A stretch of 64,000 nucleotides of DNA, taken from positions 1,184,001-1,248,000 of the forward strand of contig OZ223209.1 of the NCBI GenBank assembly GCA_965140415.1. The letters run 5' to 3'. Below, in pieces: positions 7,339 through 32,861 of this stretch. A program made the position numbers and the translations under genes. Numbering within the stretch: the stretch's first letter is position 1; every line of letters starts with the position of its first letter. Below the pieces are notes generated by a model that was not told where the DNA came from, did not search any database, and was given only the letters and a program-made list of their open reading frames with translations. The DNA comes from Myxococcota bacterium (GTDB lineage Bacteria > Myxococcota_A > SURF-8).

Positions 7339-7542
7339 CCTCGCTAATATCTGGGAAAAGTCCTTTATTTCAGCGCCTATATTCTTCGTGATTTCAATAT
7401 ATTCCAAGTTTTCACCAGTCCAGTACACCCCAATCAGAGAGAGTTTGTCGGTAACACTCGCACAACGTACCGGGAATCGAACTCGGGGTTTTATGGCATG
7501 GCTAACTATTTGGCGGAAGGGTATGATATTGTTAACGATTCT

Positions 7543-7796
7543 CATTTCGGACGGGCAAGCCCACATTTCGGACGGCGTCCGAAATAATAGAGAAACAGAG
7601 AGAGATTTGCGGAGAATTGGTGAGAAATGGGCAGGATGTGGAACAGGCTCGTCCTTTTTAAGTCCGAATTGAGAATGATAGACAGCGGCGAAAACCTATA
7701 GATATTCAGCACATATAGCGCGTTATCATAAAACGAAACAAGCTCCATGGAGTAACCATAGAGCGAGTTCGAAAAACAACTAATGGTGGAGGCGGG
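7543..7796. repeat. Island-end module 1 with ATTTCGGACG/GTCCGAAA motifs, a hairpin and a displaced tmRNA 3' fragment TGGTGGAGGCGGG (7784-7796)
   Basis: 13-bp identity to 32514-32526; motif spacing identical to 32273-32526. Confidence 0.8.
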
Positions 7797-7992: not shown

Positions 7993-9006
7993 TTAATGAT
8001 CCCAAATCACCCGAACCGAATCCACAAACACCCAACGGGGACCTGTGCCATCAAGGCAATCCACTCCGGTAGAACCGTGATCGTACAAAATCAAGGTATG
8101 ATCTCCAGGTTTCAGCCATATCACTCCACTGGAAAGATCCATCCATTGGTTTTTATATTGCGATGCGGCAAACGGACCGTATAGCCTGTCGCTTGCACCT
8201 TCTCTGATGAGACCATAATAAACATCATCTGCGTGTCGGTATGAAGCTCCATAATCACAGAGGTATCCTTCCGCCGGTATCTTTACCTGGATTTTGTAGA
8301 AACCTTCTACCGGCACACTAAAGTCCCAACGGGCGTTGTCGCCGGAATAGTCTGTAAGATCACTTGCATCCGGGATCTCGCAACCTGTAGTCCATGTCCA
8401 GCGAATATTTAGGTTGTTGACGGTCGGCCCATCGTGCCATCCGCCAGCTGTCGGATTGGCGCAGGTGGCACTTGTATCCACTGGCGTATTTTGACGATAT
8501 TGTTGGCCTTCGCGCTGATGTACGAAATCATCACATGTACGGAATCCGAAGTCTCCACTGCTGCAATCGAGGCAATAACCATCCGGATCGCAGGCCCAGC
8601 CTTCCTGGCAGTCTCCACAGTCGCAGTCGCCGACATCGCCGCAGCGGTTCTGGCAGCTGTCCTCACAATCGTTCTGGCATTGGCCACTCAGGCAAGTAGT
8701 CTCCGTATCGCAGGTCTGAGTTCCGGTTACTACATAGCATGAGCCATTCGTTCCGCAACTGGTGATAGTGCTGTCGTTACTGCACCAGGAGCCGCTGCCG
8801 TGGTTGTTATCCTGGCACCAGTTGGACGGGCAGGAGCAGGATACGCAGCCGCCGATGTCGTCATTGCAGCGACGGTTACTGGCGCAGTATTCGTAGACCT
8901 CGTAGGAGCCCCTTGACACAAGATCGCCGTTGCAGCTGGCGCTGGTACCCGAACAGTAGCGGTCGTACCACATGATGTACACGTCATCGCCGCAGGCGGT
9001 GCCATC
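7993..9006 (-). pseudogene. 5'-truncated Cys-rich surface protein with C-terminal golvesin/Xly-CBD-like beta-sandwich
   Basis: Frame opens right after a TAA (DGTACGDDVYIM...) with no signal peptide or RBS; C-terminal ARWDFSVPVEGFYKIQV...QWMDL...VFVDSVRV. Confidence 0.6.
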
Positions 9007-13492: not shown

Positions 13493-13790
13493 AGAATCCT
13501 CCAAATTGAAGAATCGTATTATCGTAAAATAAAAGATAAAAAATAATAATATAATATTAGAAAAACTGAAATAAAAAAATAGAAAAACAGTAAAGTACAA
13601 AAATATAGAATAATACATCAAATAAAAATAAAGAATAAAAAATAAAAAACAATATAACAGGTAAAAATACCAATAATAATTTAGATAAACTATGCAAATA
13701 ACAAAATTATTATATTCAATATAAATACTATCCTAAAATGAAAATCCTATCATTATGAAATAACATGTAAAAATGTCGTTCATTTCAAAT

Positions 13791-17677: not shown

Positions 17678-20326
17678 TCAAAGTTCGTTTCCTACGTCCA
17701 AGGAGGTGGAAGGGAAAGGAGGCTTGGAAGTCGATGTTTTTTCGTAGTTTTTTTCAAGCTCCCATTTTATTATCCCCTTGGCCCGTCTGCGCGAAAGGAA
17801 ATAATGGCACTCATATTTGTGATCGGCATCGGGGGCTAAATCTTGAACGGGAATGTCAGTCGGGGCCGTTTTAAAAAGTTGCGAAAAACGCCGGGTGCGG
17901 GCCTGAGCGGTGCGCTTTCCAAGCTCGCGGACAAAAAGCTGGTGATCGTCCGCGAGGGCGACGAGATCCCTTGCGCACAACGGTGCGCCGTCGTTGTGCG
18001 CCAGCCAGGCCGAGAAAAAAAGCTTGAAATCTGGGGACGTGACGGGAGAAGACGCAAGAAAACCGGAGATGCCATGCATGGCCAAGAGCCCGTCGAGCGC
18101 GTGCGCCCAAGTTTCGAAAGTGGAAAGGTGGGCCTTTCCTCTGGGCTGACCTGCAAGAAACCAGGCGCGGACCAATAACAGCGCAGCACGCAGGCCCTCC
18201 AAACGGTGACGGCGCAAAAATTGCAGCAGATCCGCATGGCGAAAGCTCGCGGGGTCTTGTCTTCTTCGGCGTTGAAGGCGAACACGTACGAGGCGACGGG
18301 CCAGCTCGGGCGTCGTACTAAGATGATTGGCCGTCAGACACCAGGAGCTGCGATTCGTAAGCTTGATTATTTCGGAGTGGCCCAGGCGGCGGGAACACCA
18401 CTCGGTGGAAGAAATCACGCTGGCCAGCGAGGGAGAATCAAGCAGGAAGGACAGGTTGTCGAAACAGATGAAGTCCGCCGAATCACACAACAAAGCTGTG
18501 ATCTGTTTGCGGCGCTCGCTTTCATCCTTGTCCAGCACGGTCATCGTCGGGCCATGACCCAATAAAATCGTGCCGATCGCCTGCACCAATAGGGTTTTAC
18601 CAACGCCGGGCTGTGGAGCTTCGATACTGAACAGCGGGGTTGGGGCGTGGAGCGCATCGAGCAAAAAAGGTTGCAGTAGCAGCGCGAACGCATGAGCCCG
18701 GTCACTTGCGGAGACGAAGGGGAAATCATGAAACAGATGTTCATCGAACCACTGCACGGCGCGGCGGCACTCTTCCGGAGATGGATTCTCGGGGATAGCG
18801 GGCAGTTCCTCATCGAGCGAGACGTACAAGCGGCTGTCGGCGTAGTAACCGGAACGCGCCAGCAGACGACCTTCCGAATCGAAACAGGGACGGCGGCGGA
18901 CTCCAAGAAGTTCCGGCCATTTCGGATCGGGATTTACACAGAGATCTCGGGCCAATTCGCGATTCGGGCGGGATGGGCGCCGGTTTGGATTTTCACCGCG
19001 CACCCAATCCGCCGCCCGAACCAGCAGTCCGAAGGACAAAGCCTCCGTCAGGGGTTTCAGTCGGCCTCCTTCTTGCTCGGAATCGAGCAGGAGGGATTGG
19101 CCATCCAACCTGAACAGGCGCGGCGGAGAACCATAGGCTTTTCGTAGCGCACGATGCGTGTCCAATAGGACATCGCGAAACTGGCGCCCGTCTACTCGGA
19201 TTTCAGGGTGCTTTTCATCCTTTTCAAGATCCATTGGCGGTGGGCAACCGGCCAGGTTGCCCACACGTTGCACGGCGTCTTTAAAATCCTGCGCCTGCCC
19301 GGTGCGTTGCATGAACGAAAAGACGGAAACCGTTTCGCCGGAACGAAACGAATGAAACGAGCCGCGTTCGGCGGGACCGCTACCATCCGCGACGCTGGCG
19401 GAAGGACGACGATCGCCGCTGGGACTGGCCGGGTCTCGGCATTCCAGCCAGCCGCCGGAGCTGGCTCTTCCGGTCAGCCACGGGCCATACACATCTTCCA
19501 ATGGGAGGCGGTCGAGGGCGTTTTGCCGCCAGTCCGGGAAAGAGTCGTACAGGGCTTGCAAATCGAAAGCGGGGGAGGGCAGCTCCGGCGAGGAAATGAC
19601 AGGCGGTTCTAGTTCCTCTTTCACCTCGGTTGTTTGGTTTAGCCGATCGGGAGGGTTGGGGCGGAAGTCGGCGGGTGAAACCGGCCTGAAGCCCTGCTCG
19701 GTAGGGCAGAAAAACCGGCAGGCGCCGGGCTGCGCACCCTGCCAACCCGGCAGCCAAACGAAATTTCCCAGTCCCTGTCGCGTTGTCAGCGCAGCCTGTT
19801 TGGGAAAAATTTCCACCCGGCGGCGCGTTGCCTCATCCAGCTTTGAGAGCAGCTTCTTAGCGAGACGGCGCAATCGATGCGCCTCTACAGGCTCGCTAAA
19901 GAGCAACCACACATGCCAGCCATGGCCCGAAGCGGAGCGCTCCGCCAGGGGAAATAGATGCAAGGTTTCCGTCGCGGCAAAAACCTGTTTCATCGTCGCG
20001 TCGGGATCGGGCAGGGCATCGGCGTGATCCGGTCCCCCATCGAAGTCCAGGCAAAGCCAGCGACTTCTACCCAGCGCGTCCGGTGCATAGCTGCCCAGCC
20101 GAAAGCGACCGAAGAGACGGCGGGTTTTCCCGTGCAGGGTGCAACCGGCCAGCGGCGCCTGCGGGCCGAGCAGATGCGCCGTGAGCAAGGCGTCCAGATC
20201 GTCGGGCCGAACCGGGTGTGGGCGGCCCCACGGCATGGCGGCGGCCACGATATCCGTGCGATTGAAAAAGAAATCTTTCAACAACGTCAGCCAGTCGATC
20301 ACAGCAGCAGGGGTCAAGTCGGTCAC
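17678..20326 (-). CDS. Archaeo-eukaryotic primase (TOTE-AEP-like) fused to a P-loop helicase-like domain; replication protein of a mobile element
   Basis: WLCLDFD, ERSASGHGWHVWL, EIFPKQ, GNFVWLP; C-terminal APQPGVGKT (Walker A), FDNL, LTAN; GTG start after AGGAGG; GC-richer than neighbours. Confidence 0.82.
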   Translation of the reverse strand: MTDLTPAAVIDWLTLLKDFFFNRTDIVAAAMPWGRPHPVRPDDLDALLTAHLLGPQAPLAGCTLHGKTRRLFGRFRLGSYAPDALGRSRWLCLDFDGGPDHADALPDPDATMKQVFAATETLHLFPLAERSASGHGWHVWLLFSEPVEAHRLRRLAKKLLSKLDEATRRRVEIFPKQAALTTRQGLGNFVWLPGWQGAQPGACRFFCPTEQGFRPVSPADFRPNPPDRLNQTTEVKEELEPPVISSPELPSPAFDLQALYDSFPDWRQNALDRLPLEDVYGPWLTGRASSGGWLECRDPASPSGDRRPSASVADGSGPAERGSFHSFRSGETVSVFSFMQRTGQAQDFKDAVQRVGNLAGCPPPMDLEKDEKHPEIRVDGRQFRDVLLDTHRALRKAYGSPPRLFRLDGQSLLLDSEQEGGRLKPLTEALSFGLLVRAADWVRGENPNRRPSRPNRELARDLCVNPDPKWPELLGVRRRPCFDSEGRLLARSGYYADSRLYVSLDEELPAIPENPSPEECRRAVQWFDEHLFHDFPFVSASDRAHAFALLLQPFLLDALHAPTPLFSIEAPQPGVGKTLLVQAIGTILLGHGPTMTVLDKDESERRKQITALLCDSADFICFDNLSFLLDSPSLASVISSTEWCSRRLGHSEIIKLTNRSSWCLTANHLSTTPELARRLVRVRLQRRRRQDPASFRHADLLQFLRRHRLEGLRAALLLVRAWFLAGQPRGKAHLSTFETWAHALDGLLAMHGISGFLASSPVTSPDFKLFFSAWLAHNDGAPLCARDLVALADDHQLFVRELGKRTAQARTRRFSQLFKTAPTDIPVQDLAPDADHKYECHYFLSRRRAKGIIKWELEKNYEKTSTSKPPFPSTSLDVGNEL

Positions 20327-20931
20327 GGGAAATCCTCCTAAATGCTTCAGGGCGGAAATCGCCCGAAAAAAACATCGGAGGAAAACGTTTTTTCAAAGGG
20401 ACGATTTTTTTATACCAAGAAATCCGGGGGGGCTGCAAGAGACGTAGAGCAGCAAAAAGCAGCGCAGCGGAGCATGAGGGTTGGCACAGCAGCGGCAGGC
20501 AGCGGGAAGGACAACAGGGACGGCAACAAGCGACCCGAGAGGCTGGAAGGATGTAAAAAAAGAAAGTGCGGATAGTATTCTTATAGTATTTTTTTCTCCC
20601 GGAAAATTGCGCGAAGGGAAGAAAAAAAACGTTGTTTTCGTCAAAACCAACCTAAGCTAATGAAATAAAAAAAGATATTAGGGGTGTAATAAAAAAAAGT
20701 GTTCCCGCCTTTCTCCCTTCATACCCCCTGAAAATCGTTTCGGAAGTAAAACTGGTTTTGAGTTAAAAACTTTTACATGATGTAAGGAATGTGAAAATTT
20801 ATTGCTCCATTTTTTTCATTCATTAGTTTGACTTTTAGAAGGTCTTGATTAGAATGGCCAGTCATGGTTTAAGTACAACCAAATCCCTCATTACCAAAAA
20901 TTCGTGGCGGACAACAGTAGAGGTATGCTTT

Positions 20932-23900
20932 ATGGCTCCAAGCAATGATCTCAATCGATGTAGGCTTAAAGATTACGGTCTGATGATGTCGTTTCATGCC
21001 ACACCGCCGGATCGAATCTTTAGCATTTTCGACGAACTCAAAGATCATTACGCCCGCTTTCGCGATCCCTTGTTTCTGACCTGTAAAGAATATGAGGAAA
21101 AGAGCAAGCGCCCGAGAACGAAGGATTTCAAAGAGAAGAAACGGGAGTTTGAAAAGTTTTTCTATCATCCGTTTTTCGCGTTTCTGTTCGGTCCCTTCGA
21201 CGCCATGAGCATGGCGCTGGTGGATCATTATGAGCTATCGATGTTTCTGCATCCTCCTTCTTCCTCTTCCCTCCAGGTCGCCTTTCACGCCGTTCCGCAG
21301 AATTTTCCTTCGAAGAGTCAGATAAAGGTGTTTTCAGAACAATGTCCTGCTCTTGCAGGTTTCGACCCGCGACTTCGGGAAAAGCACATCACAGAAACCG
21401 TAAAAAGCGTGTTCGTTTCGCCGCTGTCCATGTTCGGCAACGAGTTGTTCCCGACACAGGATTTTACGGAGCATTTGATCTCGAAATTACAGGCTCATGG
21501 GTTATTGAAAAAGGAACTTCCTGGGTTACCGGAGAAATATCCTCTCAATAAGCAAGTTCATTACATGCTGCATACCGTTTTTAAGCCCATACCCTACCCG
21601 GAATTGAGTAAACCCAAGCCCCCTTCCGATTCGCAATTAGGGAAGCTTTTCGACTTGATGCAGAGCGCCGATTTTATTGAGCCTGGTAGTTCTCTTGCGC
21701 TTTATAAAGATGTTGTCACTGCGGTCTATGTCAAATCCATTGACGATCTGAAAAACGAAAAACGCAACGAGCCGATCCACCGGCAGCGCAAACGCCTTGC
21801 CAACGAAATGCCGCTGATCGCCATTGTCAAGATCAAACTCAACGCCGTGCTGCTGCTTACCTTTGGGGCCTCGCTGGTACGTCGAATCAACCGGGCCATG
21901 CGTGCGTTGTTGCATACTTACCGCGACGAGGACGATGGGAGCCTCAGGTACAACCCTTTGGAATGCGATCTTAAAGTAAAAGTCACGGCGCTGGAGCCCA
22001 TGGGCTGGAGCGAGCTGAGCTTATGCTTAATATCAAATAATTACGAGGACTTGGCCGCGGCCATCCTTCGCATCCGCGAGGCAAAGCTCTCTGATTTGAT
22101 CATCGAACCCGATCCCGAAGCAACTGGGAAGGAAGCAGAAAACGAAAGCATCCTGAAACAGGCGGCCTATCAGTTAAAAGAACCCTGGTTCCCAACGGAT
22201 CTCAGCAGTTTCCCACTGTTGCGGCTCTTCCACGGCGACCGCAACAAGGCAGAAATCTTGTTTTCGACCTTCCTGCTTGAAGCTCTTGCCAACCCCGCCT
22301 TTGCCGATTTGGCTTCCGGTGGCTTCCGGCATGAATATCCCCATGTTTATGCGCGCCGCACCACGTCGGATGAGCCCTTGTATCAGGACGCACCGCTCGG
22401 CTTGTATTTTCGGGAGCTGTGCCATCTTTTCGGTGTACCCGATAAAGATGGAAAACATGATAATCCCAACTTGAGGGGCGAAATTGAAAGCGCCATAAAG
22501 GACTATCTGGCCCAGTCGAAAACCAATCCACCCAAGTCGCTGCTGAGTTTTTTGCGCCCGGTGTTTGAACGACCTACTATGGATGATCCACCTTCCCCCC
22601 ATGATTGGGAGGACAACGAGAAAAAAAATTTAGAACGAGAACAACGGAATTACCTGGGGCGCTGTTATCACGCGGTGCTCTCCCGCATCCTGGCGCACTT
22701 CGACGAATTGCCTCCCTTTCTTGCAAACGAGACCTGGAAACAGCATCTGGCTGGATACGATAAGACCGTCGAGGATATCATCAAAGAGATGCACCTGGCG
22801 GTGGATAGCAACGCGAAAGACATCAACCTGATCAGCATTACGCATTCCTTCTTCGGCGTGGGCCGTACATTTATGGAAACCTTGCGAGATTTCTGTTTTC
22901 AGCGTGGCGACTTCGAAGATTTGAATAGTAAGGACGAAGCGAAACGCGCGCAGGCGGAGCAAGCGAAAACGGAACTGCTTGCCTCGTTGGATAATATCAA
23001 CGGGTTTGTGCTGCCTTCGATCGGGTTCAATGCCCGCCCGGGTAAACTGAATGCTCTTTATAATAAACTAAATGAGTTGGCTTATGATCTGATCAATATT
23101 AATGCGGCCACCGATGAAAACTCCTCCTTTAACGATAAACCCCACTTGCGCCGATTGCTCAATGACCTGAAAAACCAGCCCATTCCAGTTCCGGAAGACT
23201 TTGGTGAGGGGAAGTACATTCTGGTTGAACCGGGCAAAACGGATATGAATTTGCAGTTTTCGTGGTTTAAGGAAAGCTCCAAAGACTGGATCTTCAATCC
23301 TCGTGCTCCAATTCCGACAAGGCTTTTCCTCTTGCTATTGATGGCGTCAATGACGACGCTAGCAAAACAGGAAGACAGCGAGGCCTCGCCCGCCTCCGTT
23401 CCCAAGAATTACCGCGCCTTCGCGTTGGAAATCTATCGGCAGCGCAGCTCGCTGGGGGTGTTGGTTGAGACCAAAAAAACCCCGGTCACGTTCATGGACC
23501 CAAAAAAACGGGCAGACGAGACGAAAAACGTGATGAACCCCAATTTTCAGTTATTGGAGCTTTTGCGACTGGGCGAGTTGTACGATCTGTATTTAAAAAG
23601 CAACATCCGCAAACTGGGAATTCCAAAGCATTTAAAAAACGAGTTGCGCCTGATGTTGGGCGTCTACGATTCGATCATTACCGATCCGATTCAGTTCGAC
23701 GCCATTTTGGAGCTTGGCCCCTCTTTGGTGCGTTCGCTAAAATACATTCAGGAATGTATGGATACGAAAACGCCCGGGAAGAAGATCCTACTCGAATCCA
23801 AAAAGCAGGAAAAGCTTATTGAAGATATCGAATTCAGCTTGAGACGTTTGCGCGACGGCTTTTCCAATCGCTATAGCAGTTCCTTCGCTCTAACGGAACT

Positions 23901-25596
23901 TTCCGATGTCACGCTTGAAGTAAAGGGCCCGATTCAGCATCTCCTTACAAGCCTCGATGGAATCCTTGCTTCGGCGCTACAAGATCTGCCTAACTTCGTA
24001 GATCACGCCGATCCGCTGGACTGGCCGATGCGTTCCGGTTTTGCCGTGATCGGCGAAAAGACCTCTGTAACTACCTTGCTGCCAATAGGGTCTATTACTC
24101 GCCAAAATATGGTGGAAATGTATCAGGCAGAGCACGTGATGACCTTGTATCACGAAGCGCTACATACCTTGCTTGTCATGTCCGAGTTCGACCCCTTACG
24201 CGAATTGCTTAAGCATTACAGCAACGGCACCTTCGGCTCCAATATCGAATATGAGAATAGGACACCGATTTTGGAAGAGATCATGTCGGATTGTTTGTTG
24301 GCGGAGAGGGTGTTTTTCCCTGAGCTGGGCGATCTCCTGAGCGACCCGAACGAAGAACAGAAAAATGATCGCGCCAACCGTTTCAAAGAAAGCAATCGTC
24401 ACTTTTTACGCTGGCTTTCGTTCAATTTCCTGCAAATCGGTACGTCTTCCGATCCGACCCTGCAAGAGTTGGAAAAGGATTTTTATCGCCGTGCCCGTTT
24501 CTTTGCCCGTTTGATTTTCGCCATGAATCTCGACGAAGAAGACCAGTTGGACCTCGCCGATAAGGACTATTTCAAGACCTGGGAAGAACGTTTTCATAGC
24601 CCGATGCGCATGGCAAACTATTTCCTCCCGAAACTTTCCGGTTTCAAGGATGAGTTGAGTGCGCACATTCCGCCCAGTGCCCTCTCAGAAGAGACTCTGA
24701 AGAACAAGAATGGTGTGGGTTGGAAGTTTTGGGTTCTGTTGCATCAGAAGTTCCAACACCTGGTTCTTGCGCCGGAAGGCTTGTTGAAACTCGAATACGA
24801 GCATCAGGTCCAGCTATTCGAGAAATTAAAAGAGAATTTCGACATCGAACAGGATATTGCATCTCAGGACGAGCATTTAAGAAAGAAATTCGAAACTCGG
24901 CTGGAAAAGATCAAGTGTCTGTTGCAAAATTTTGTGAACAAGGCGCACGACGATCTACCTCCCCCCATGCTGCATTTCCTATTGACGATGAAGTATTTGC
25001 TATGGGGATTTCGGAGCTACGACACCCACGAAAACCTGCCTTTGGTCGGTGCGGATAGATGGGAAACCCTTAGCAAAGAAGATTTTATCGATTACCGCCA
25101 AAATCGCCTGGCCGCCTTCACTCTCGATCCGATCCGTGACCCCGACTATCTTGGTCCCCTTGACGGCTCTCCCTCCATAAAGGATATCGATTGTCAATTT
25201 AGTCGAGGATATGGTTTCATCAGTAAGGTGTTCTCTCAATACCTGGAACATCTCTTCGATCCACCTATAAATAAAGGTGAAAATAAAGATTGGCCGCGAA
25301 CCCCTTTCAAGCGTTTGGGTCGCGCGGAAACAGACTGCTCCCCTGAATTTGAGGAAGGCGATCCGCCCCTGTTGGCCGATCCGGCTGGCGGCTCTTTTAC
25401 GCCTGACTTCGAGTATCGCCGCCTTTATTTTGGCGCTGGCGAGGTTTGCATGTTTTCGCTTTGGGATTATGGTTTATTTGCTCGCCGCCGGAAATTGTTG
25501 AACCTTTTATTGCGCCCCTTCGTTAAAGCTCAATCAGGAGATTACAAGGAGTTTTTGGGAGAAGACAAAAAGGTCGAGGAGGTGAGGGAAGTATAA
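20932..25596 (+). CDS. Large uncharacterised protein (~1550 aa) with C-terminal HExxH zincin-like motif (frame open from 20845)
   Basis: Long ORF; LYHEALHTL followed by EEIMSD; N-terminal recurring beta-G-x-x-D/E motifs (FGPFDA, MGWSEL, PGKTDM). Confidence 0.8.
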   Translation: MAPSNDLNRCRLKDYGLMMSFHATPPDRIFSIFDELKDHYARFRDPLFLTCKEYEEKSKRPRTKDFKEKKREFEKFFYHPFFAFLFGPFDAMSMALVDHYELSMFLHPPSSSSLQVAFHAVPQNFPSKSQIKVFSEQCPALAGFDPRLREKHITETVKSVFVSPLSMFGNELFPTQDFTEHLISKLQAHGLLKKELPGLPEKYPLNKQVHYMLHTVFKPIPYPELSKPKPPSDSQLGKLFDLMQSADFIEPGSSLALYKDVVTAVYVKSIDDLKNEKRNEPIHRQRKRLANEMPLIAIVKIKLNAVLLLTFGASLVRRINRAMRALLHTYRDEDDGSLRYNPLECDLKVKVTALEPMGWSELSLCLISNNYEDLAAAILRIREAKLSDLIIEPDPEATGKEAENESILKQAAYQLKEPWFPTDLSSFPLLRLFHGDRNKAEILFSTFLLEALANPAFADLASGGFRHEYPHVYARRTTSDEPLYQDAPLGLYFRELCHLFGVPDKDGKHDNPNLRGEIESAIKDYLAQSKTNPPKSLLSFLRPVFERPTMDDPPSPHDWEDNEKKNLEREQRNYLGRCYHAVLSRILAHFDELPPFLANETWKQHLAGYDKTVEDIIKEMHLAVDSNAKDINLISITHSFFGVGRTFMETLRDFCFQRGDFEDLNSKDEAKRAQAEQAKTELLASLDNINGFVLPSIGFNARPGKLNALYNKLNELAYDLININAATDENSSFNDKPHLRRLLNDLKNQPIPVPEDFGEGKYILVEPGKTDMNLQFSWFKESSKDWIFNPRAPIPTRLFLLLLMASMTTLAKQEDSEASPASVPKNYRAFALEIYRQRSSLGVLVETKKTPVTFMDPKKRADETKNVMNPNFQLLELLRLGELYDLYLKSNIRKLGIPKHLKNELRLMLGVYDSIITDPIQFDAILELGPSLVRSLKYIQECMDTKTPGKKILLESKKQEKLIEDIEFSLRRLRDGFSNRYSSSFALTELSDVTLEVKGPIQHLLTSLDGILASALQDLPNFVDHADPLDWPMRSGFAVIGEKTSVTTLLPIGSITRQNMVEMYQAEHVMTLYHEALHTLLVMSEFDPLRELLKHYSNGTFGSNIEYENRTPILEEIMSDCLLAERVFFPELGDLLSDPNEEQKNDRANRFKESNRHFLRWLSFNFLQIGTSSDPTLQELEKDFYRRARFFARLIFAMNLDEEDQLDLADKDYFKTWEERFHSPMRMANYFLPKLSGFKDELSAHIPPSALSEETLKNKNGVGWKFWVLLHQKFQHLVLAPEGLLKLEYEHQVQLFEKLKENFDIEQDIASQDEHLRKKFETRLEKIKCLLQNFVNKAHDDLPPPMLHFLLTMKYLLWGFRSYDTHENLPLVGADRWETLSKEDFIDYRQNRLAAFTLDPIRDPDYLGPLDGSPSIKDIDCQFSRGYGFISKVFSQYLEHLFDPPINKGENKDWPRTPFKRLGRAETDCSPEFEEGDPPLLADPAGGSFTPDFEYRRLYFGAGEVCMFSLWDYGLFARRRKLLNLLLRPFVKAQSGDYKEFLGEDKKVEEVREV

Positions 25597-28500
25597 TGCC
25601 TGTCGACTTCACCCAACTATTAGCTGATTTCAAGCCCGAATTTGTTGAAACCTTGGATCGTCTTCGATCCCAGGAAGAACAACCCATTTTTTCCAAATTC
25701 AATGTCAATAAAACCAAACTGGACTCCCACTACGATACTGGGACCGAAGAATACACACAGAAAAAGAAGCAACTGGAAGATACAAAAGAAAAGGAAATGA
25801 AAAGTGTTGAAAAAGATTACGATCTCTTGCTCCGCGAATACGATCGAATCTCCTCTCTTTCCTACCGACAGGAATCGCATGCAAGCGAGCAGATTATATT
25901 TCCCTATAAACTCCTCATTTTATCGTATCACTTGATGCTTGACTACGAGTTGAATAGGACCGTCTTCGGCCTCCCAATGCGCGATTTTCTCGGAAGAAGA
26001 GCCCGAGCAATTCTATGGCGGATTCTTAATCCGCCTCTGGGTATGACCTCGATTCCGCAGCGCCTGTATTTTTCCTGTTGGTGGCTTATTTTTTACAGTT
26101 ACGCCTCTTCCGGTAATGCCCTGGGACTGTTTCAAGCCCGCCGAATTATGCTTAAGACTCTATTGCTTTACTCTAAAACAGTGGGCGTCTCGCGTCATAC
26201 CGTTAACGTATTTTGCTGCATAGTGGATCTAAATCTAGTCATGCAAGCAAGAAAAGATCAGAAACTCAAAAAGCCGATTTCCCACACTGATCCTCATTAT
26301 GATAAATTAAACAGCTTAGTCAACCTCCTTAGCGAAGATCCCTCCTCTAAATACCTGCAACGCGAACTTTCTACTCTTATTTCTGAAGCGAATGACCTAT
26401 TGTTTTCTTTTAAGTTAGAAAATCCATCTCAGGATTTCGAAGTATTTTCCATCGATATCGATTTACAAACCTGTCTCAATAGTCTGAGATTATTGGATAT
26501 CAAGGCTATACCTCTTTATCAGGATCTCTACTACGAATTACAATCTTTTTCCAAAATCGGCAGTAATGACAACCTCTCAATTTTCGAGAATATGTTCAGT
26601 CGTTATGCCAATGAACTTCTTGCGGATAAATTCGCTCCTTGCAACTTTATCCAAAAACTCGGCGCAAGGAAAATTATCGAATCCTTGTTAAGAGGACATT
26701 TCGATGAAACCTGCCCACTCAATGCTAGATCGATGCGCAGCAGATTTTCTCGGACTAAGATTCCGCAGGAAAGTCCACAAACACCTTTACAAGTCGTGGT
26801 GATAAACTCCCACACTAACATACACTCCTATCCCTCTTCATTTCTCACCAACTTATTCTTATATATTGAAGAAAAATACGAAGACTACGATGCTTCGAAT
26901 ATTGACACCTACCTCCGCTATCTGGTTGCGGAAATCGCCGAATCTTGCCTGAGATATGAATTGGAACTTGCGGCGGAGTTGATGACGCTGGCCCGCCTTC
27001 ATTTTATCTACCTGGAAAAGAGCAAAAAGAACATTCCTTCCGGTTTTAAACATCTGGGTAAATTTCTCGTAAAAATTGCTCCTGGCAAAGATAAGCGGTC
27101 CAACAGCGAGGTCAAAGCGAAGTTTCAGGAATACTTGAGTTCCCTTTCCTGGCCGACTGGAATGCGCCATTTCCTGCTTTCCTTGTTTCCTTCGAGTGGC
27201 GTCGGTGCGGATCACCTGGCCCTTTTAAACCAACCTCGAGGTCTTACGGATTCGGACGACGAAATTCGCATTCACTGTCTTCGTCGTTGGGGTTCGGATA
27301 CATCCCTGTTTACTTGGAACCGCGAAAAGGAACAGAACTGGGGGGGCGGATTCTTTATTTATGCCGGCAAGGACAGAGGAGTTGCGGTTGATCCCGGTCT
27401 GGATTTTCTTGATCTATTTTATATGTACACACCCTATCGCTTTTCGAACATCTCCAGCTACCTGATTACTCATACCCATATCGATCATGCCGGAGAATTC
27501 GAGAAAATGTTCTCGATCAGTGTGAAATATGCAGAACTGGCTAACAATATCCTAAAACCGTTGCAGATCATTTCCTCCAGGGATCGTGGCCATTATATAG
27601 AATGGATGAGTTGGACTAAAGAGGAGTGCCGACGCTGGCAGAGGATCAGAAAACTGAAGAACCCTAGTTGTTGTCCCATTATCGAAAAAAAGGATCAGGG
27701 GTTGCCTGAGTTGTTCAAGCAACGCTGTACAAGTGACAATGAAATTTGTCCTCGCCAGTTTCCTTTTATAAACAAATTGGTTGTAGTAAAAAAGACGATC
27801 GACGAAACAAGTGCAACCGAAGATACAGTGAGTATTCCTCTTACAGACACGAGTCAGATCGATCGTAATCAATGGGCAAAAGTGGTTCCCTTTAAGGCCG
27901 AGCATTATGAATGGCCACTTTCTAAACTCTTTCCAAAGTCTCATAAATACGACAGCAACTCATCCTATCCGAAGAAACGTCGCTCGTATGAGTTTCCTCC
28001 TAAATACTGGACCCCAGATACACCCTCGGATTACAGTGTTGGCTATAAACTAAGCATTAACCCCCCCGCCTCGCAAATGGATTCCTGGTACAATATCCTA
28101 ATTACTGGCGATTTCAGCTACAATCAGGTCAGTGAATTTAAGAAATCAGTGAATTCGGGGCGATTGAATCTCACCGATACGCATGTGATGATTGCCAACA
28201 TCAGTTCGGTCAAATCCAGCGAGTTGGATGAACACAACGGCGATCGTAATGGGGGCAACCATCTGGGACTTTGCGGGTTGATTGACATTGTAGAAATTGT
28301 GAAACCGAAGGTGCTGGTGATCACAGAAATAAATCGGGAACAGTCATTCAAAGATCTTCGCTGCAATCTGCTTGATCTGATCAAGTATCGTCTTAATATT
28401 AAGATGGGGGACGAAGCTCCACCGGTTTTCTTGAGTGAGCTTGGTTTGACCTTCATTTTGCGCGATGGAAAAATCCTGGTGGAATGCGCCTGCTCCTCAC

Positions 28501-28847
28501 TCGCTGATGAGGCACGCGAAATCTATCCTAACCCAGTTACAGTTGAGCAAGTTAAATTCAACTCTTCCGAGCATTACAACAAAAATGGTGAGCTCGCTGT
28601 TTTGTGTGAAAAATGCAAGCCTCTATTCTCAACACCAGAGGACCAGCCACCTCAAGGTGGTGTAACAATCACTCCTCCTCCTCCTCCGGCAACTTCCCGT
28701 TCAATGGACATTCCCGCGGCCACCAGACAAAATAAAAAATGGGGTTCATCTCCTTCCTCCCCCACTCTCCCAGAAACAAACATAGAGGTTCCCTCTCAAA
28801 TTAACTTGGAAGATAAAAAAGATTCTGATCCAAAAACTGTGACCTGA
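25596..28847 (+). CDS. MBL-fold metallo-hydrolase with ~560-aa helical N-terminal extension
   Basis: LRRWGS...GGGFF...VDPG, THTHIDH (HxHxDH), AEH, ITGD, NHLG; TAATG overlap with the upstream gene. Confidence 0.88.
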   Translation: MPVDFTQLLADFKPEFVETLDRLRSQEEQPIFSKFNVNKTKLDSHYDTGTEEYTQKKKQLEDTKEKEMKSVEKDYDLLLREYDRISSLSYRQESHASEQIIFPYKLLILSYHLMLDYELNRTVFGLPMRDFLGRRARAILWRILNPPLGMTSIPQRLYFSCWWLIFYSYASSGNALGLFQARRIMLKTLLLYSKTVGVSRHTVNVFCCIVDLNLVMQARKDQKLKKPISHTDPHYDKLNSLVNLLSEDPSSKYLQRELSTLISEANDLLFSFKLENPSQDFEVFSIDIDLQTCLNSLRLLDIKAIPLYQDLYYELQSFSKIGSNDNLSIFENMFSRYANELLADKFAPCNFIQKLGARKIIESLLRGHFDETCPLNARSMRSRFSRTKIPQESPQTPLQVVVINSHTNIHSYPSSFLTNLFLYIEEKYEDYDASNIDTYLRYLVAEIAESCLRYELELAAELMTLARLHFIYLEKSKKNIPSGFKHLGKFLVKIAPGKDKRSNSEVKAKFQEYLSSLSWPTGMRHFLLSLFPSSGVGADHLALLNQPRGLTDSDDEIRIHCLRRWGSDTSLFTWNREKEQNWGGGFFIYAGKDRGVAVDPGLDFLDLFYMYTPYRFSNISSYLITHTHIDHAGEFEKMFSISVKYAELANNILKPLQIISSRDRGHYIEWMSWTKEECRRWQRIRKLKNPSCCPIIEKKDQGLPELFKQRCTSDNEICPRQFPFINKLVVVKKTIDETSATEDTVSIPLTDTSQIDRNQWAKVVPFKAEHYEWPLSKLFPKSHKYDSNSSYPKKRRSYEFPPKYWTPDTPSDYSVGYKLSINPPASQMDSWYNILITGDFSYNQVSEFKKSVNSGRLNLTDTHVMIANISSVKSSELDEHNGDRNGGNHLGLCGLIDIVEIVKPKVLVITEINREQSFKDLRCNLLDLIKYRLNIKMGDEAPPVFLSELGLTFILRDGKILVECACSSLADEAREIYPNPVTVEQVKFNSSEHYNKNGELAVLCEKCKPLFSTPEDQPPQGGVTITPPPPPATSRSMDIPAATRQNKKWGSSPSSPTLPETNIEVPSQINLEDKKDSDPKTVT

Positions 28848-28971: not shown

Positions 28972-30375
28972 CGTGCGTCCCGAAAACTCCGTCCAAGCTG
29001 AAATCACTTGCCTTTTCGTGATCATTCCGTAAAGCTGTTTTGCATGAAACTCTTGCTGATTATCACGATGTTGGCCGCCCTGAACCTCTTCCTATTCGGT
29101 TACGTCCACCGGAAACTGATTCTGCTCGTCGCCTTGCAACGTCAACAGCTCGTTGTTTACAAGCGGAAGATCAAACGACCGAGGCTCAAAGAACGGGACC
29201 GTCAATTCTGGATACTTCTTTCAAAGATCTGGTCGGAGTGGAAAGAGCACCTGGTCATTGTCAAACCGGAAACGGTCATCCTATGGCGTCGCCGGAAATT
29301 CAAGGACTACTGGCGGAAACTGTCAAGAGCAGACAGGAAAATAGGACGACCGCCCATCACCAAGGAACACATCGCCTTCATCAAACAGATTTCCGCTGAC
29401 CACCCAGGCTACAGTGGCAAACGCATCGCCGGGATGTTGAACACGTTGTTTGGTGTAAATCACGCCCCAAGCACCGTAGATCGCTACCGAGTGAAGCTGA
29501 CGAAACCGCCTCTTGGAAATCAGCAGTGGAGCACCTTTTTAAAAAACCATGCTTCCGCTATCTGGTCCTTTGATTTCTGTGTCCAGTTCACCTTCTTCTT
29601 TGCCCGAGTTTATATCCTGATCATCATCGAATTGGAAAGTCGACGGATTGTCCATCTCGCTGTGACACTGCACCCAACCCTGGCCTGGCTCAAGCAACAG
29701 ATCCGCAACGCCACCTGGGATAATTGCCCGAAGTTTCTGATCCATGACAACGACGGCATCTTCGGCCAACTGGGAAAGCCAGTGGCCGTTCAATTCAATG
29801 GCAAATCGGTTTCCTGCCGCTCGTCGTTGGATTATTGGCTGGTCACCATCATGGGCATCCGGGGAATTCCGACCCCGTTCCAAGCGCCCAATGCCAACGC
29901 CCATTGCGAGCGCGTCGTGGGCACGCTACGCCGGGAGTGCCTGGAGCACATGCTCTTTCTCAACGAATGGCATCTGATGCGGGTGCTGCGGGAATACAAA
30001 GACTATTACAACCACGAGCGTTACCATCAAGGCATCAAGCGGATTCCAAACCCAGCCGATGACATTGCCGATAGCCGGAAACTTGAGGGCAAAGGCAAGC
30101 TGGTTCCCAAGCCGATCCTGAACGGACTGCTCCACAGCTATCGGCTGGCGGCTTGACGTTTTAGCTGGTGATCTTAGAATGGGTCTCGGATTGAAACCTA
30201 TGGACAGGTCCATCCAATACTCGCCATTTACACGTTTCAATGAACAATTCGGTCATAGTGGGAGGGGAGTTCATGTCCCGCGCCGCCGAATTCCTTCTCC
30301 TCCAGACTCGCAAAGTGTTTTCTCATCGGGCGATCATCGCCAAATCATGTCCGGATGGAGTTTTCGGGTTGCACG
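28972..30375 (+). mobile_element. Insertion sequence (~1.4 kb) with rve/DDE transposase
   Basis: Imperfect inverted repeats CGTGCGTCCCGAAAACTCCGTCC and GGATGGAGTTTTCGGGTTGCACG; no target duplication seen. Confidence 0.85.
29044..30156 (+). CDS. Integrase core (rve) domain transposase
   Basis: IVKPETVILW, WSFDF, LIHDNDG, PNANAHCERVVGTLRRECL, YYNHERYHQG. Confidence 0.92.
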   Translation: MKLLLIITMLAALNLFLFGYVHRKLILLVALQRQQLVVYKRKIKRPRLKERDRQFWILLSKIWSEWKEHLVIVKPETVILWRRRKFKDYWRKLSRADRKIGRPPITKEHIAFIKQISADHPGYSGKRIAGMLNTLFGVNHAPSTVDRYRVKLTKPPLGNQQWSTFLKNHASAIWSFDFCVQFTFFFARVYILIIIELESRRIVHLAVTLHPTLAWLKQQIRNATWDNCPKFLIHDNDGIFGQLGKPVAVQFNGKSVSCRSSLDYWLVTIMGIRGIPTPFQAPNANAHCERVVGTLRRECLEHMLFLNEWHLMRVLREYKDYYNHERYHQGIKRIPNPADDIADSRKLEGKGKLVPKPILNGLLHSYRLAA

Positions 30376-30604
30376 AGTTGCGAATCAGTCCCTTTTTAAC
30401 TATGAAAAGAACGGTATCAACAGTCTTTTTCTCAAGCCAATAGAGCATGAGATCAATTGCAATTTTTGTTTTTCCGAGTCCTTGCTCGTGAAAGATTGCA
30501 GCGTACTCAAGTTCGCGGACAGCCTGAACAGCCTCGCTTTGGTAGGAAAACGCCTGATGTTTTGCATCAAGTCTAGGTTCTTTTTTCAGCTTAATCTTAG
30601 GCAT
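30376..30604 (-). pseudogene. SNF2/SF2 helicase N-terminal fragment truncated by the IS
   Basis: Q motif FSYQ, Walker A HEQGLGKT; homology stops exactly at the IS end (30375). Confidence 0.85.
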
Positions 30605-30627
30605 AATTCCTCAACCTGCATTTCTGT

Positions 30628-31038
30628 CTAGCAAGGGAGGTTGGCAATTACATCAATTGATACCGAACTAGAATTGGTTTCAATTTGAAGACGCTTGGTT
30701 AAAGCTCTCGCAAACCTGCTCATTGGCCATGGAACTGCAAATACAAAAACAGAGTTTCCACATGTGGAACCATATTTTAAGAAAGCTCTGATTTGTTCCA
30801 CCGAATGAGGTCTTTCAACGTCCCCTATTGTTTTGGCTTCACCAATAACAGTTAAGCCATTTGGTGCTGTTGCAGTGAAAACGTCTGGAACGTACCCGTT
30901 AATTTTAGGAGGTTTACTTGAAACGTTCATCGTAGGGTGATCGATTAATAAAAACCCTTTGTCTCCATTCAAATACGTCTTGGTAACCCAAGCCACTAAA
31001 TCTTCCACAAGTGTAACATGAGCCGCTGATTCTGCCAT
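30628..31038 (-). CDS. Small PD-(D/E)xK nuclease-like protein
   Basis: VPDV...IGEAKT; TAATG overlap with the upstream ParB-like gene. Confidence 0.7.
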   Translation of the reverse strand: MAESAAHVTLVEDLVAWVTKTYLNGDKGFLLIDHPTMNVSSKPPKINGYVPDVFTATAPNGLTVIGEAKTIGDVERPHSVEQIRAFLKYGSTCGNSVFVFAVPWPMSRFARALTKRLQIETNSSSVSIDVIANLPC

Positions 31039-32063
31039 TATTCTTCCGAATCAAAGCCGATATCTTTACAGAGGTCGCTAAGGGCATCTCTGGCATCACA
31101 AACCACGGAGACTTCTGGTGTGTCTTTCCTACTCCGAAGTTTCTGAAGATCAATATATTGAATTCCACTTATTCGCTTGCTAAGCTCTCTTGCCAGTTGC
31201 TCCAGTGTTGCATCCTGCAGGGCAGATTCTGGATTTGGCACATCCAAAGCCTTTATTGCTTCTTGGGCGCCATGTTTTAGAAAAATGGCCTTGGCTTTTT
31301 CATTCTGTAAGATTTGGGGTAGTTTACGAACAGTATTTAAAGGGAATATTTTTTGAGTATTGACCCATTCTGCGAAATCCTTTTTTGTGTAATTTGCTAA
31401 AAGAAGTGCATTGACTACTCGCGGACGCTGAAGCTCGACAAATGCACTAAAACGCGAGGGATCAAAATCTTGGTCGCTATCAAGCAGGGGTCTGTAGTTA
31501 GACTCCATGTCGTTGTAAGCTTCAATATAATTTTGTACTTCCCGTTTATCTCCACCACAAAAGTCCACTAGTTGAGAAAAAGTAAGATGCTCATTGTTTC
31601 TAAGAAGATTCAGATATTTCGCTTTTGAATAGGGATCCCATTCTCGTGTCCCAACCAAGTGAGCCTGCAATCGTATCGCATCAATTGAATCTGTGGGTAG
31701 CTCATCATGGACCATAGATGGGATCTTGTCCCAAGGTCCTTTGGGATCACTCGCTTTCAGCTCTCGATAAATGTGCGTCCTTGTGTTCCCTTCGATTACA
31801 ACAAGCTTTCCATCGCTCTCTCTATTCACAATAATTGGGTGGATAATTCCACAATTTGTTTGAATTGACTGTTTTAAACTTTGGTAGCTTGGACCTCCCA
31901 CATCATCTTGCCCTCCACCTGAGCGCAAGGCCAATTCAATCTGTGCGGAAGTTGGTGCTCCTTCATATATTTCAAGCCATTTGGCGATCCTTGGATTCTG
32001 TAAATCCAAATCGATCGAATCGACATCTAGCATTTCAAATCTTGCACCCGCAGGTTTAGACAT
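31038..32063 (-). CDS. ParB/Srx-like N-terminal domain protein
   Basis: LDLQNPRI, LKQSIQTNCGIIHPIIV, VIEGNTR. Confidence 0.8.
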   Translation of the reverse strand: MSKPAGARFEMLDVDSIDLDLQNPRIAKWLEIYEGAPTSAQIELALRSGGGQDDVGGPSYQSLKQSIQTNCGIIHPIIVNRESDGKLVVIEGNTRTHIYRELKASDPKGPWDKIPSMVHDELPTDSIDAIRLQAHLVGTREWDPYSKAKYLNLLRNNEHLTFSQLVDFCGGDKREVQNYIEAYNDMESNYRPLLDSDQDFDPSRFSAFVELQRPRVVNALLLANYTKKDFAEWVNTQKIFPLNTVRKLPQILQNEKAKAIFLKHGAQEAIKALDVPNPESALQDATLEQLARELSKRISGIQYIDLQKLRSRKDTPEVSVVCDARDALSDLCKDIGFDSEE

Positions 32064-32272
32064 ATGCGACTCCGTTCTTGTAATGGAACCAAAGGTGGCT
32101 CATCCTTGAGGTATGAGAAAGATCATAGTAAAGATGTGAAGTCTTCACAACAATTTTCTCTTTTCATTTCATTTTTAGACGTTCCCTCGCCATGTGCGCG
32201 AGGGAGTCGAACTCGGAGAAATTAGTCTCCTCTATCAGGATCGCGTAACCGTCCGTAAACAATCGGGATTCA

Positions 32273-32513
32273 CATTTCGGACGAGGTCGGCGAAATTTCG
32301 GACGAAGTCCGAAACCACGGAGAACAGAGAGAGAAAAACGGTGATTTCGGGTAGCGAGGGGAACGATGGGTGGAAGCCCCGTCCGAAATCGAGCGAGAGC
32401 GTGCCGACTAGAGAATCCAGAAAAACCATAGAAATCAAGCAGATATAGGCTACTCCAGAAACACGAAACCCGCTGCTCTGATCAAACAGAGAGCGGGTTC
32501 GATACTGAAAAAC
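32273..32513. repeat. Island-end module 2 (homologue of 7543-7783), including a hairpin just downstream of tmRNA
   Basis: ATTTCGGACG at 32274 and 32295, GTCCGAAA at 32307 and 32381; hairpin AACCCGCT...AGCGGGTT at ~32467-32499. Confidence 0.75.
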
Positions 32514-32861
32514 TGGTGGAGGCGGGGGGAATCGAACCCCCGTCCGAAATGCGTCTTGCGTGAGCGTCTACGTGCGTAGTTGATGGTTCAATCTCAATTC
32601 ATCCCTCACCCATCAACAAGAGAGCAATGAATCCAGTTCGATTGATCTCGCCTCAGCAGGCTCGAACAGCGCCCGCATCGGCCAGCCATTAAATTGACGC
32701 CTCTTCCCATGCAATGGCATCACAAGAGAGACGGACGGGCATTATGCCGCCATTTGGTAGTTGTTTTCGGCAATTGTATATGCCTGCCGGCTTTTACGAA
32801 GATCCGGCGCTCCGGCACGCGACCCAGGCCTTCTACACCCCGTCGAAGCCATGTCGCCCCC
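32514..32861 (-). ncRNA. ssrA: tmRNA; tag reading frame AENNYQMAA*
   Basis: 5' GGGGGCGACATGGCTTCGACGG; 3' GGGGGTTCGATTCCCCCCGCCTCCACCA; internal GCCGAAAACAACTACCAAATGGCGGCATAA; 348 nt. Confidence 0.97.

Follow-up and report, generated by a model that had tools for sequence, protein, structure and literature searches.

In a 64,000-nucleotide stretch of DNA from a Myxococcota bacterium (contig OZ223209.1 of assembly GCA_965140415.1, positions 1,184,001 to 1,248,000 of the forward strand; hereafter the window), two very large genes, here called gene 1 and gene 2, lie end to end on an island at a transfer-messenger RNA (tmRNA) gene. We tentatively propose that they form a co-translated conflict module, in which a conserved core protein is coupled to an exchangeable effector, a phosphoesterase of the metallo-beta-lactamase (MBL) fold, carried on a decayed tmRNA island. 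This reading could quite possibly be right, and such a module would probably act against phages or against other mobile elements. The features of the pair, in window coordinates, are as follows:

20932..25596, forward strand: gene 1 (1554 aa, from the open reading frame (ORF) call), a divergent member, lengthened by insertions, of an undescribed family whose proteins have ~950 aa
20932..23346, forward strand: N-terminal half of gene 1, which aligns to the ferredoxin-like (beta-alpha-beta) array predicted for the family, with FGPFD, GWSE and PGKTD between long insertions
23539..25593, forward strand: conserved helical domain at the C-terminus of gene 1 (residues 870-1554), from a predicted model and conserved columns
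24151..24165, forward strand: HEALH, the form that the family motif [H/K]-E-A-x-N takes in gene 1, from column counts over 107 members
25577..25600, forward strand: coupling junction, a GGAGG-type ribosome-binding site followed by a TAATG stop/start overlap
25596..28847, forward strand: gene 2 (1083 aa, ATG start, from the ORF call)
27228..28625, forward strand: putative MBL-fold domain of gene 2, residues 545-1010, from motifs, Pfam, hhalign and the ESM Atlas

A Shine-Dalgarno site followed by a stop/start overlap is the usual layout for translational coupling. At the junction of the two genes (GAGGAGGTGAGGGAAGTATAATGCC), a Shine-Dalgarno-like GGAGG precedes a TAA codon, which shares its last A with the ATG of gene 2. 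Gene 1 and gene 2 are an intact, translationally coupled pair, and the initial annotation of this stretch was correct in describing two very large reading frames with a TAATG overlap (1554 and 1083 aa, with the overlap lying behind the GGAGG). The longest frame of gene 1 runs from 20845 to 25596 on the forward strand, with a TTG start and 1583 aa; translation likely begins at the ATG at 20932, because the N-terminus of the resulting 1554-aa product aligns with the N-termini of related proteins. Frames of 1554 and 1083 codons at ~47-49% G+C would not be expected by chance, given the frequency of stop codons, and the G+C content of the pair is 0.43-0.50. No convincing membrane segment was found in either protein, gene 2 has no detectable sequence likeness to gene 1 or to the profile of the gene 1 family, and a scan for promoters and terminators gave a signal no higher than the shuffled-sequence level.

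Gene 1 matches no family in Pfam, NCBIfam (E<=1) or PADLOC, and a word-based search of 5.8 billion proteins returned, besides gene 1 itself, one weak relative, P0004 (993 aa, E 3.3e-4), to which it aligns by BLASTP in four matched blocks that are collinear from end to end. P0004 then led to a further member, P0005, and an exhaustive search with a three-sequence profile, run against 1.84 billion cluster representatives (clusters at 50% identity), identified 669 representatives at E<=1e-3; tightening the threshold to 1e-10 left 508, and to 1e-30, 322. The majority of members are 900-1000 aa long; gene 1, which scores 1417 bits against the profile and is among its three source sequences, is ~600 aa longer than a typical member, through insertions. 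None of the 51 scanned family members had a Pfam match (E<=0.01), a search of PDB sequences with the family profile gave nothing significant, and literature searches found no description of the family. There is no paralogue of gene 1 that we could find in its own genome, P0004 has no match in plasmids and phages (tblastn), and a scan of viral contigs yielded no confirmed member. Across genomes, the family has the scattered distribution typical of mobile defence genes. Members occur in two of 401 genomes of the window's own phylum (the window genome included) and in one of 13 genomes of the order of G278, the other positive genome in that phylum; around another positive genome, G401, they were found in 1/401 genomes across its phylum, 7/401 in its order and 26/301 in its family, the Saprospiraceae.

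The fold predicted for the family is an N-terminal ferredoxin-like array followed by a helical C-terminal domain without a significant structural match. In an AlphaFold2 model of P0004 (51 sequences; predicted local distance difference test (pLDDT) 80.1, predicted template-modelling score (pTM) 0.87), residues 14-292 match tandem ferredoxin-like barrels of the chlorite-dismutase/DyP/ABM type (VIA Z 11.1, root-mean-square deviation 4.0, 205 residues aligned with 1t0t_V; E 3e-3 in Foldseek) and residues 301-404 match RAM/AsnC domains (Z 8.2-8.4). Compared with BFVD folds, the same model gave nothing significant (best E 0.018). Placed on this model through the alignment, the columns of FGPFD, GWSE and PGKTD would form hairpins between the paired strands of successive ferredoxin-like units. 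In gene 1, these motifs are found at residues 86-90, 358-361 and 767-771, followed by HEALH at 1074-1078 and EEIMSD at 1115-1120; the initial annotation had listed all of them, together with the gene 2 motifs given below, and every one is present in the order described. The model of the C-terminal domain of gene 1 (md2fa4a2c4098, residues 870-1554, 60 sequences; pLDDT 63, pTM 0.69) resembles generic helical bundles only (best VIA Z 7.1; best Foldseek E 0.58), and no known enzyme fold is supported by it. Rows of M48-type peptidases appear in its Foldseek output at E 1.2-2.5 and those of BepA, 3c37 and IRAP at E 1.2-3.1, with probabilities of <=0.13 in both cases, and none of the latter is in the VIA top 50.

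Conserved polar residues of the family cluster in the C-terminal domain (in P0004 numbering, N529-R530, D542, G549-G550, N596, H599, E613, D658, R710 and D953-x-x-G-G), and this domain likely holds some form of active site or binding site. Gene 1 retains the strictly invariant residues of the family, and its conserved C-terminal residues are N979-R980, E1075 (within HEALH), D1120, R1193 and D1483-x-x-G-G. HEALH, with an E-x3-D 37 residues on, resembles the thermolysin pattern, and the initial annotation had read it as the HExxH of a gluzincin protease. This was examined by column counts in a 107-member alignment and by a regular expression run over 150 members. The column of H1074 holds His in 64/107 and Lys in 30/107 of the aligned members and that of E1075 holds Glu in 105/107, whereas the column of H1078 holds Asn in 82/107 and His in just 4/107. 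As judged from these aligned sequences, the family signature is [H/K]-E-A-x-N, and HEALH of gene 1 is not a conserved zinc site.

The proposed role of the pair draws on the genes that accompany relatives of gene 1. Our sample comprises 30 loci with a total of 484.5 kb: 22 from the family-level and 6 from the order-level set, the G278 contig and one cut metagenome contig; from the 26 positive genomes, G945, G1022 and G1038 (fragments at contig ends) and G947 (a decayed copy with 8 stops) were excluded. A gene for a ThsB-like TIR protein lies downstream of the family gene, on the opposite strand and convergent with it, in 12/30 loci, which represent at least five different flanking contexts. TIR genes were called by Pfam TIR_2 and/or PADLOC ThsB1 (2e-36 to 1e-7) or by a TIR hidden Markov model (HMM) built from 12 neighbouring TIR proteins. 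In a further 8/30 loci, a calcineurin-like phosphoesterase of 529-621 aa is encoded on the same strand as the family gene; an overlap of 4-14 nt joins five of these genes to the family gene, one lies 12 nt away and two are set off by one small ORF. The motifs DxH, GD, GNHD and HH are present in all eight phosphoesterases and GHxH in seven of them, and three of the four scanned with PADLOC match a family there (PDC-S60, 3e-22, in two, and ‘Effector, Endonuclease’, 3.7e-14, in two); a literature search found no paper that names PDC-S60. TIR and phosphoesterase partners are never found together (0/30 loci), and they recur far above the TIR background, five of the genomes with TIR partners, at 6.4-9.7 Mb, having only 3-7 TIR_2 matches each. 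In a FastTree tree made from an hmmalign alignment, the TIR-linked members form one clade and the type of partner tracks the clade of the family gene; gene 1, P0094 and the G278 copy form a group with long branches.

Some of the loci have further neighbours, several of them of defence type. At L081 (5844-12351), from the same order as G401, a gene for a 701-aa Piwi-domain protein (prokaryotic Argonaute, pAgo) lies 31 nt upstream of a family member, which in turn is overlapped by a metallophosphoesterase gene, all three being co-directional. At L042 (5714-13361), a dense defence island, patatin and SLATT genes lie upstream of the family gene and TIR and pYEATS-TIR genes downstream. HsdM (L080), a TraG/TrwB-type protein (L078) and NACHT-LRR (L047) are encoded beside other members. 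A third component is not supported, because the small ORFs between TIR and family genes are conserved among close kin only. Nothing follows the family gene on the cut metagenome contig (L003), and the G278 contig ends 475 nt past its family gene, in a partial ORF of 151 aa that is unlike gene 2 and has no Pfam or PADLOC match; PADLOC likewise found no family in the L004 member. The defence or conflict role put forward in the initial annotation is plausible, because relatives of gene 1 adjoin genes for ThsB-like TIR, metallophosphoesterase, pAgo, HsdM, NACHT-LRR and patatin/SLATT proteins. Taken one step further, the gene 1 family might supply the constant core to a class of prokaryotic immune modules that is widespread but undescribed; it would sense through its ferredoxin-like array and control mutually exclusive effectors, and the window might hold the first MBL-armed and most derived form of the class. 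We consider this quite possible, though somewhat less likely than not.

Gene 2 consists of an N-terminal region of ~545 aa, a C-terminal MBL-like domain, a stretch with four cysteines and a proline-rich tail. Its motifs are LRRWGS (562), GGGFF (583), DPG (599), THTHIDH (625-631), AEH (768), TGD (837) and NHLG (888), from which D599, H626/H628/D630/H631, H770, D839 and H889 are candidate metal ligands; the gap of ~137 aa from MBL motif 2 to candidate motif 3, with an insertion at residues 640-760, is unusually long. The Pfam match to Lactamase_B_2 covers only residues 596-635 (E 0.035, 14.1 bits against a cut-off of 27 bits) and is the weakest of 18 in the genome. When compared by hhalign with an alignment of the genome's 17 other MBL domains, gene 2 matched with a probability of 92.3% (E 5.4e-7), with DPG, THTHIDH and TGD in the expected columns and the histidines of motifs 3 and 5 (candidates H770 and H889) not reliably placed. 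In the ESM Atlas, it is nearest to MBL clusters of the Lactamase_B_2/Apyc1 type, at 0.86-0.90, which is a lead only. Thus, of the MBL metal site announced in the initial annotation, the HxHxDH signature (626-631) after the motif 1 DPG (599) stands, while motifs 3 and 5 lack a confident position. We regard gene 2 as a probable MBL-fold hydrolase and a putative metal-dependent phosphoesterase, and as an example of how far an MBL domain can drift while keeping its metal-site motifs.

No homologue of gene 2 beyond itself was found in the word-based search of 5.8 billion proteins, in 60 relatives, in plasmids and phages (tblastn), in PDB sequences or, as a paralogue, in its own genome, and a search of 400 further genomes from the phylum with its MBL domain alone also gave nothing at E<=1e-3; gene 2 is an orphan by these searches, an exhaustive profile search not having been made for it. 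For its N-terminal 545 aa no match was found, be it to gene 1 or to the regions of the phosphoesterase partners outside their catalytic part. Past the MBL domain, residues ~964-1010 (28485-28625) contain two cysteine pairs (C-A-C ... C-E-K-C), which could form a small zinc knuckle, and these are followed by a Pro/Ser-rich tail of ~75 aa.

In the mechanism that we propose, gene 1 would be the constant core, whose N-terminal ferredoxin-like (ACT/RAM-like) array binds a ligand or an infection cue and whose helical C-terminal domain, with its predicted polar site of invariant Glu, Asp and Arg residues, relays the signal or acts on it. Gene 2 would be the swappable effector, most likely a nuclease and otherwise a nucleotide phosphodiesterase, which would stay inactive until set free by the core protein; the two proteins would then presumably contact each other. 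In relatives, a calcineurin-like phosphoesterase or a TIR protein would fill the effector role.

Several observations weigh against this proposal. The initial annotation had named, as a check, whether homologues of the two genes co-occur; no gene 2 homologue was found, and neither an MBL gene nor a gene 2-like protein lies beside the family gene in any of the 30 loci, although eight of them have another metal-dependent phosphoesterase in the partner position. The exact pairing of gene 1 with an MBL protein is consequently seen once, and the MBL assignment itself is made from motifs and a 92% profile match in which motifs 3 and 5 are not confidently placed. In gene 1, residues that are near-invariant in the family are changed (in P0004 numbering, H599->E, P603->A, G550->P, N463->D, R973->G and H318->K), and, as these changes come with insertions of ~600 aa, its activity may be altered or lost. 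The partner counts overstate independence, because kin share neighbours and most loci come from one bacterial family, and the TIR genes of the relatives are convergent and not operonic. PADLOC has no model for either protein. Finally, seven family genes in metagenome-assembled genomes (G874, G851, G862, G1004, G821, G1080 and G949) are reported with one or two in-frame stops and the L058 copy is split in two; these and the G947 copy with its 8 stops may be pseudogenes or assembly errors.

An alternative reading gives the pair no part in conflict: it would be cargo of the island that serves a housekeeping-like, regulatory or metabolic purpose, such as the turnover of RNA or nucleotides, or it would be decaying neutrally. 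Gene 2 is a singleton and gene 1 is short of several conserved residues, as such an account would expect, and the island lacks an integrase and bears an insertion sequence (IS) and a truncated neighbouring gene; moreover, most family genes in the relatives stand alone among ordinary genes, such as those for aldo-keto reductase, ferredoxin reductase and transporters. Yet both frames are intact over 7.9 kb and have kept their coupling signals, the family is distributed like mobile defence genes, and its TIR and phosphoesterase partners exceed the TIR background by far. We consider a role outside conflict unlikely.

Rather improbable, in our view, is a Thoeris-like signalling pathway, in which proteins of the gene 1 family would receive a nucleotide signal that a TIR protein produces, or serve as its effector, and in loci without TIR, the window among them, the calcineurin-like or MBL phosphoesterase would make, trim or destroy a small nucleotide instead of acting on nucleic acid. 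The ThsB-type TIR genes at 12/30 loci and the predicted ligand-binding RAM/ACT type of the N-terminal domains speak for it, as does the proximity of gene 2 in the ESM Atlas to clusters carrying Anti-Pycsar_Apyc1, a cyclic-nucleotide phosphodiesterase family, with the caution already stated. A preprint, in the part of its text available, further describes 29 putative Thoeris types, many of them with unknown effectors (bioRxiv 10.64898/2025.12.03.692087). A TIR-like ORF is, however, absent from the window and from all eight phosphoesterase-linked loci when searched with the TIR HMM, the TIR genes elsewhere are convergent instead of co-operonic, and Pfam finds no SLOG, Macro, SAVED or CARF domain in the 51 family members. 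Alternative effectors of one core fit better than two steps of one pathway, because TIR and phosphoesterase partners are mutually exclusive.

We hold it to be highly improbable that, as the initial annotation suggested, gene 1 is a gluzincin-type metalloprotease that cuts the N-terminal region of gene 2 and thereby unmasks an MBL nuclease, since this idea, for all that it can point to HEALH and the E-x3-D after it, to the long insertion between MBL motifs 2 and 3 of gene 2, to Foldseek rows of M48-type peptidases far below significance and to the proteolytic activation of gated MBL nucleases reported for Hachiman, AVAST and related systems in the accessible part of PMC12799240, has against it the poor conservation of the motif (the last His and the Lys-bearing first position counted above), the absence of a peptidase family match in gene 1 and 51 members and of a significant zincin fold match, and the gene order, which is reversed here relative to the modules in that source, where a trypsin- or caspase-like protease is fused to a defence enzyme and the MBL gene is upstream.

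The co-translated module of core and exchangeable effector, which remains our preferred reading, sits in a 24.7-kb mobile island at the tmRNA gene, as the initial annotation had recognized. The island and its other features are:

32514..32861, reverse strand: tmRNA gene, called by ARAGORN
7537..7796, no strand: distal island boundary, where the tmRNA 3' end and its downstream flank recur as a direct repeat (repeat families D4, D6 and D13)
32267..32526, no strand: proximal island boundary, overlapping the tmRNA 3' end, from repeat analysis and the tmRNA call
28972..30375, forward strand: IS481-like insertion sequence with 23-nt inverted repeats and a 382-aa transposase ORF, beginning 125 nt past the gene 2 stop
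17678..20326, reverse strand: AEP primase-polymerase of 882 aa, divergent from the pair (PF22548 AEP-TOTE, E 3.9e-17)

The two boundary repeats are ~260 nt long, 72-76% identical and spaced by 24,730 nt. Each copy terminates with the 3' end of the tmRNA gene, TGGTGGAGGCGGG, with 7784-7796 identical to 32514-32526. The proximal repeat covers 13 bases of the tmRNA 3' end and also DNA downstream of the tmRNA gene, and this reach into the downstream DNA suggests successive or imprecise integrations. The G+C content is uneven within the island (0.40-0.60) and 0.52-0.56 outside it. No integrase was found in the island, and the ORFs at its two ends (7993..8982 and 31038..32063, both on the reverse strand) have no recombinase match.

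What the initial annotation had called IS debris after the gene 2 stop is indeed an IS element 125 nt downstream, but it is apparently complete: its inverted repeats (I4) lie at 28972-28994 and 30353-30375, and its transposase matches rve_3/HTH_32 and, under the curated cut-off, transpos_IS481 (E 1.8e-17). The accompanying concern that genes beside the pair had been lost was justified, because the IS interrupts a minus-strand gene, of which a 93-aa N-terminal remnant is left at 30323..30604 (reverse strand); the gene in question is, however, on the opposite strand and belongs to a different operon. The remnant, with its GLGKT motif, looks like the beginning of an SNF2-type helicase, which a search of PDB sequences did not confirm. 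It forms part of a minus-strand row of three genes (30323-32063), together with a 341-aa protein (31038..32063; weak ParB_N match, E 0.0049; PADLOC PDC-M38A, 1.7e-6) and an overlapping 136-aa ORF, and the row is possibly what is left of another defence system.

On the other side of the pair, the divergent AEP gene, whose product is of the AEP-TOTE or CRISPR-associated PrimPol-like kind, also matches PADLOC PrimPol (2.2e-11) and PDB entry 7nqf_A (E 1.4e-7), with residues 69-193 being the only part that matches any family. Its G+C content of 0.60 is well above that of its neighbours, and it is probably replication cargo of the island, not shown to belong to the pair. The island further encodes a sigma-54-type activator with a GAF domain (1523 aa, 9050-13621, reverse strand), whose ATPase part corresponds to PADLOC RtcR_PspF (2.4e-51) and whose N-terminal ~680 aa have no assignment, and a MopE/M23-like protein of 1033 aa. 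The gene for the latter contains a 15-nt tandem repeat of ~12 units at 14808-14997, which codes for (D-G-D-V-x)n, and also three repeats spaced by 348 nt at 15702-16446.

Should the gene 1 family prove to be an immune core, a sizeable uncharacterised protein family, common in the Saprospiraceae (26/301 genomes) and sporadic elsewhere, would join the catalogue of defence systems, and its loci would amount to a natural experiment in effector exchange, with TIR and two unrelated phosphoesterase folds set on one scaffold. The members linked to TIR genes could be one more effector of the Thoeris type, one that binds its signal through a new domain. In practical terms, the analysis yields a short list of testable pairs. 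Cloning is simpler for the small ones among them, which have a TIR protein of 159-181 aa (L043, L044 and L046) or a phosphoesterase of 530-565 aa (L040, L081 and L082), than for the 7.9-kb pair of the window.

The pair is not a member of Thoeris, of TOTE, of the protease-MBL modules or of any system in PADLOC-DB 2.0, and, as the initial annotation had supposed, no named system with this pairing came to light, PADLOC assigning no family to either gene. Thoeris combines the TIR protein ThsB with a variable effector and comprises types I-XI and further predicted types, according to the available text of the preprint (bioRxiv 10.64898/2025.12.03.692087). Like Thoeris effectors, proteins of the gene 1 family are large, have putative ligand-binding domains and, in 12/30 loci, adjoin ThsB-like TIR genes. 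In contrast to Thoeris, the window has no TIR gene (by the HMM of 12 TIR proteins and by Pfam on the island genes), the TIR genes of the relatives are convergent, and the family has no SLOG, Macro, SIR2 or caspase-like domain. The TIR-linked branch of the family may already be among the 29 types listed in that preprint, as far as its accessible text allows this to be judged (10.64898/2025.12.03.692087). TOTE stands for TPR, OB, TBP and Effector (PMC12458937, citing Aravind et al. 2022, in the part available). The AEP-TOTE primase domain (PF22548) of the divergent neighbour recalls this system, whereas gene 1, gene 2 and the other island ORFs contain no TPR, OB/CSD/S1 or TBP domain and the AEP gene differs from the pair in G+C content and strand. 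With chlorite dismutase, DyP and ABM proteins and the RAM domain of Lrp/AsnC regulators, the likeness is at the level of the fold only; the tandem ferredoxin-like barrel and a RAM-like domain are predicted for the gene 1 family too (Z 11.1 and 8.2-8.4), but identity is 5-14% and the gene 1 family adds a helical domain of 550 aa that is absent there.

The protease-MBL modules (Hachiman, AVAST/Avs1, Lamassu and DRT, and the caspase-nuclease canu loci) resemble the pair in having an MBL hydrolase beside a large partner in a defence setting, and in MBL insertions that could gate the active site; their MBL proteins, as described in the accessible part of the source, are ComEC-like, encoded upstream and paired with a trypsin- or caspase-like protease (PMC12799240). 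In the window, by contrast, the MBL gene is downstream, its product is an orphan in sequence with an N-terminal extension of 545 aa, the partner has no significant match to a protease fold and PADLOC gives no match. A further group of systems combines a constant core with swappable effectors, as in the LmuB/LmuA variants of Lamassu, the short pAgo proteins with TIR, SIR2 or nuclease partners, and the N-terminal effectors of Avs. The gene 1 family differs from these in that no SMC, Argonaute/APAZ or STAND NTPase domain was detected in it and no NTPase motif was found. By analogy, it is nevertheless these designs that the pair would seem to resemble most in its way of working, as the gene 1 family likewise combines one large conserved protein with mutually exclusive effector-type partners, namely a TIR protein, a calcineurin-like phosphoesterase or, in the window, an MBL protein.

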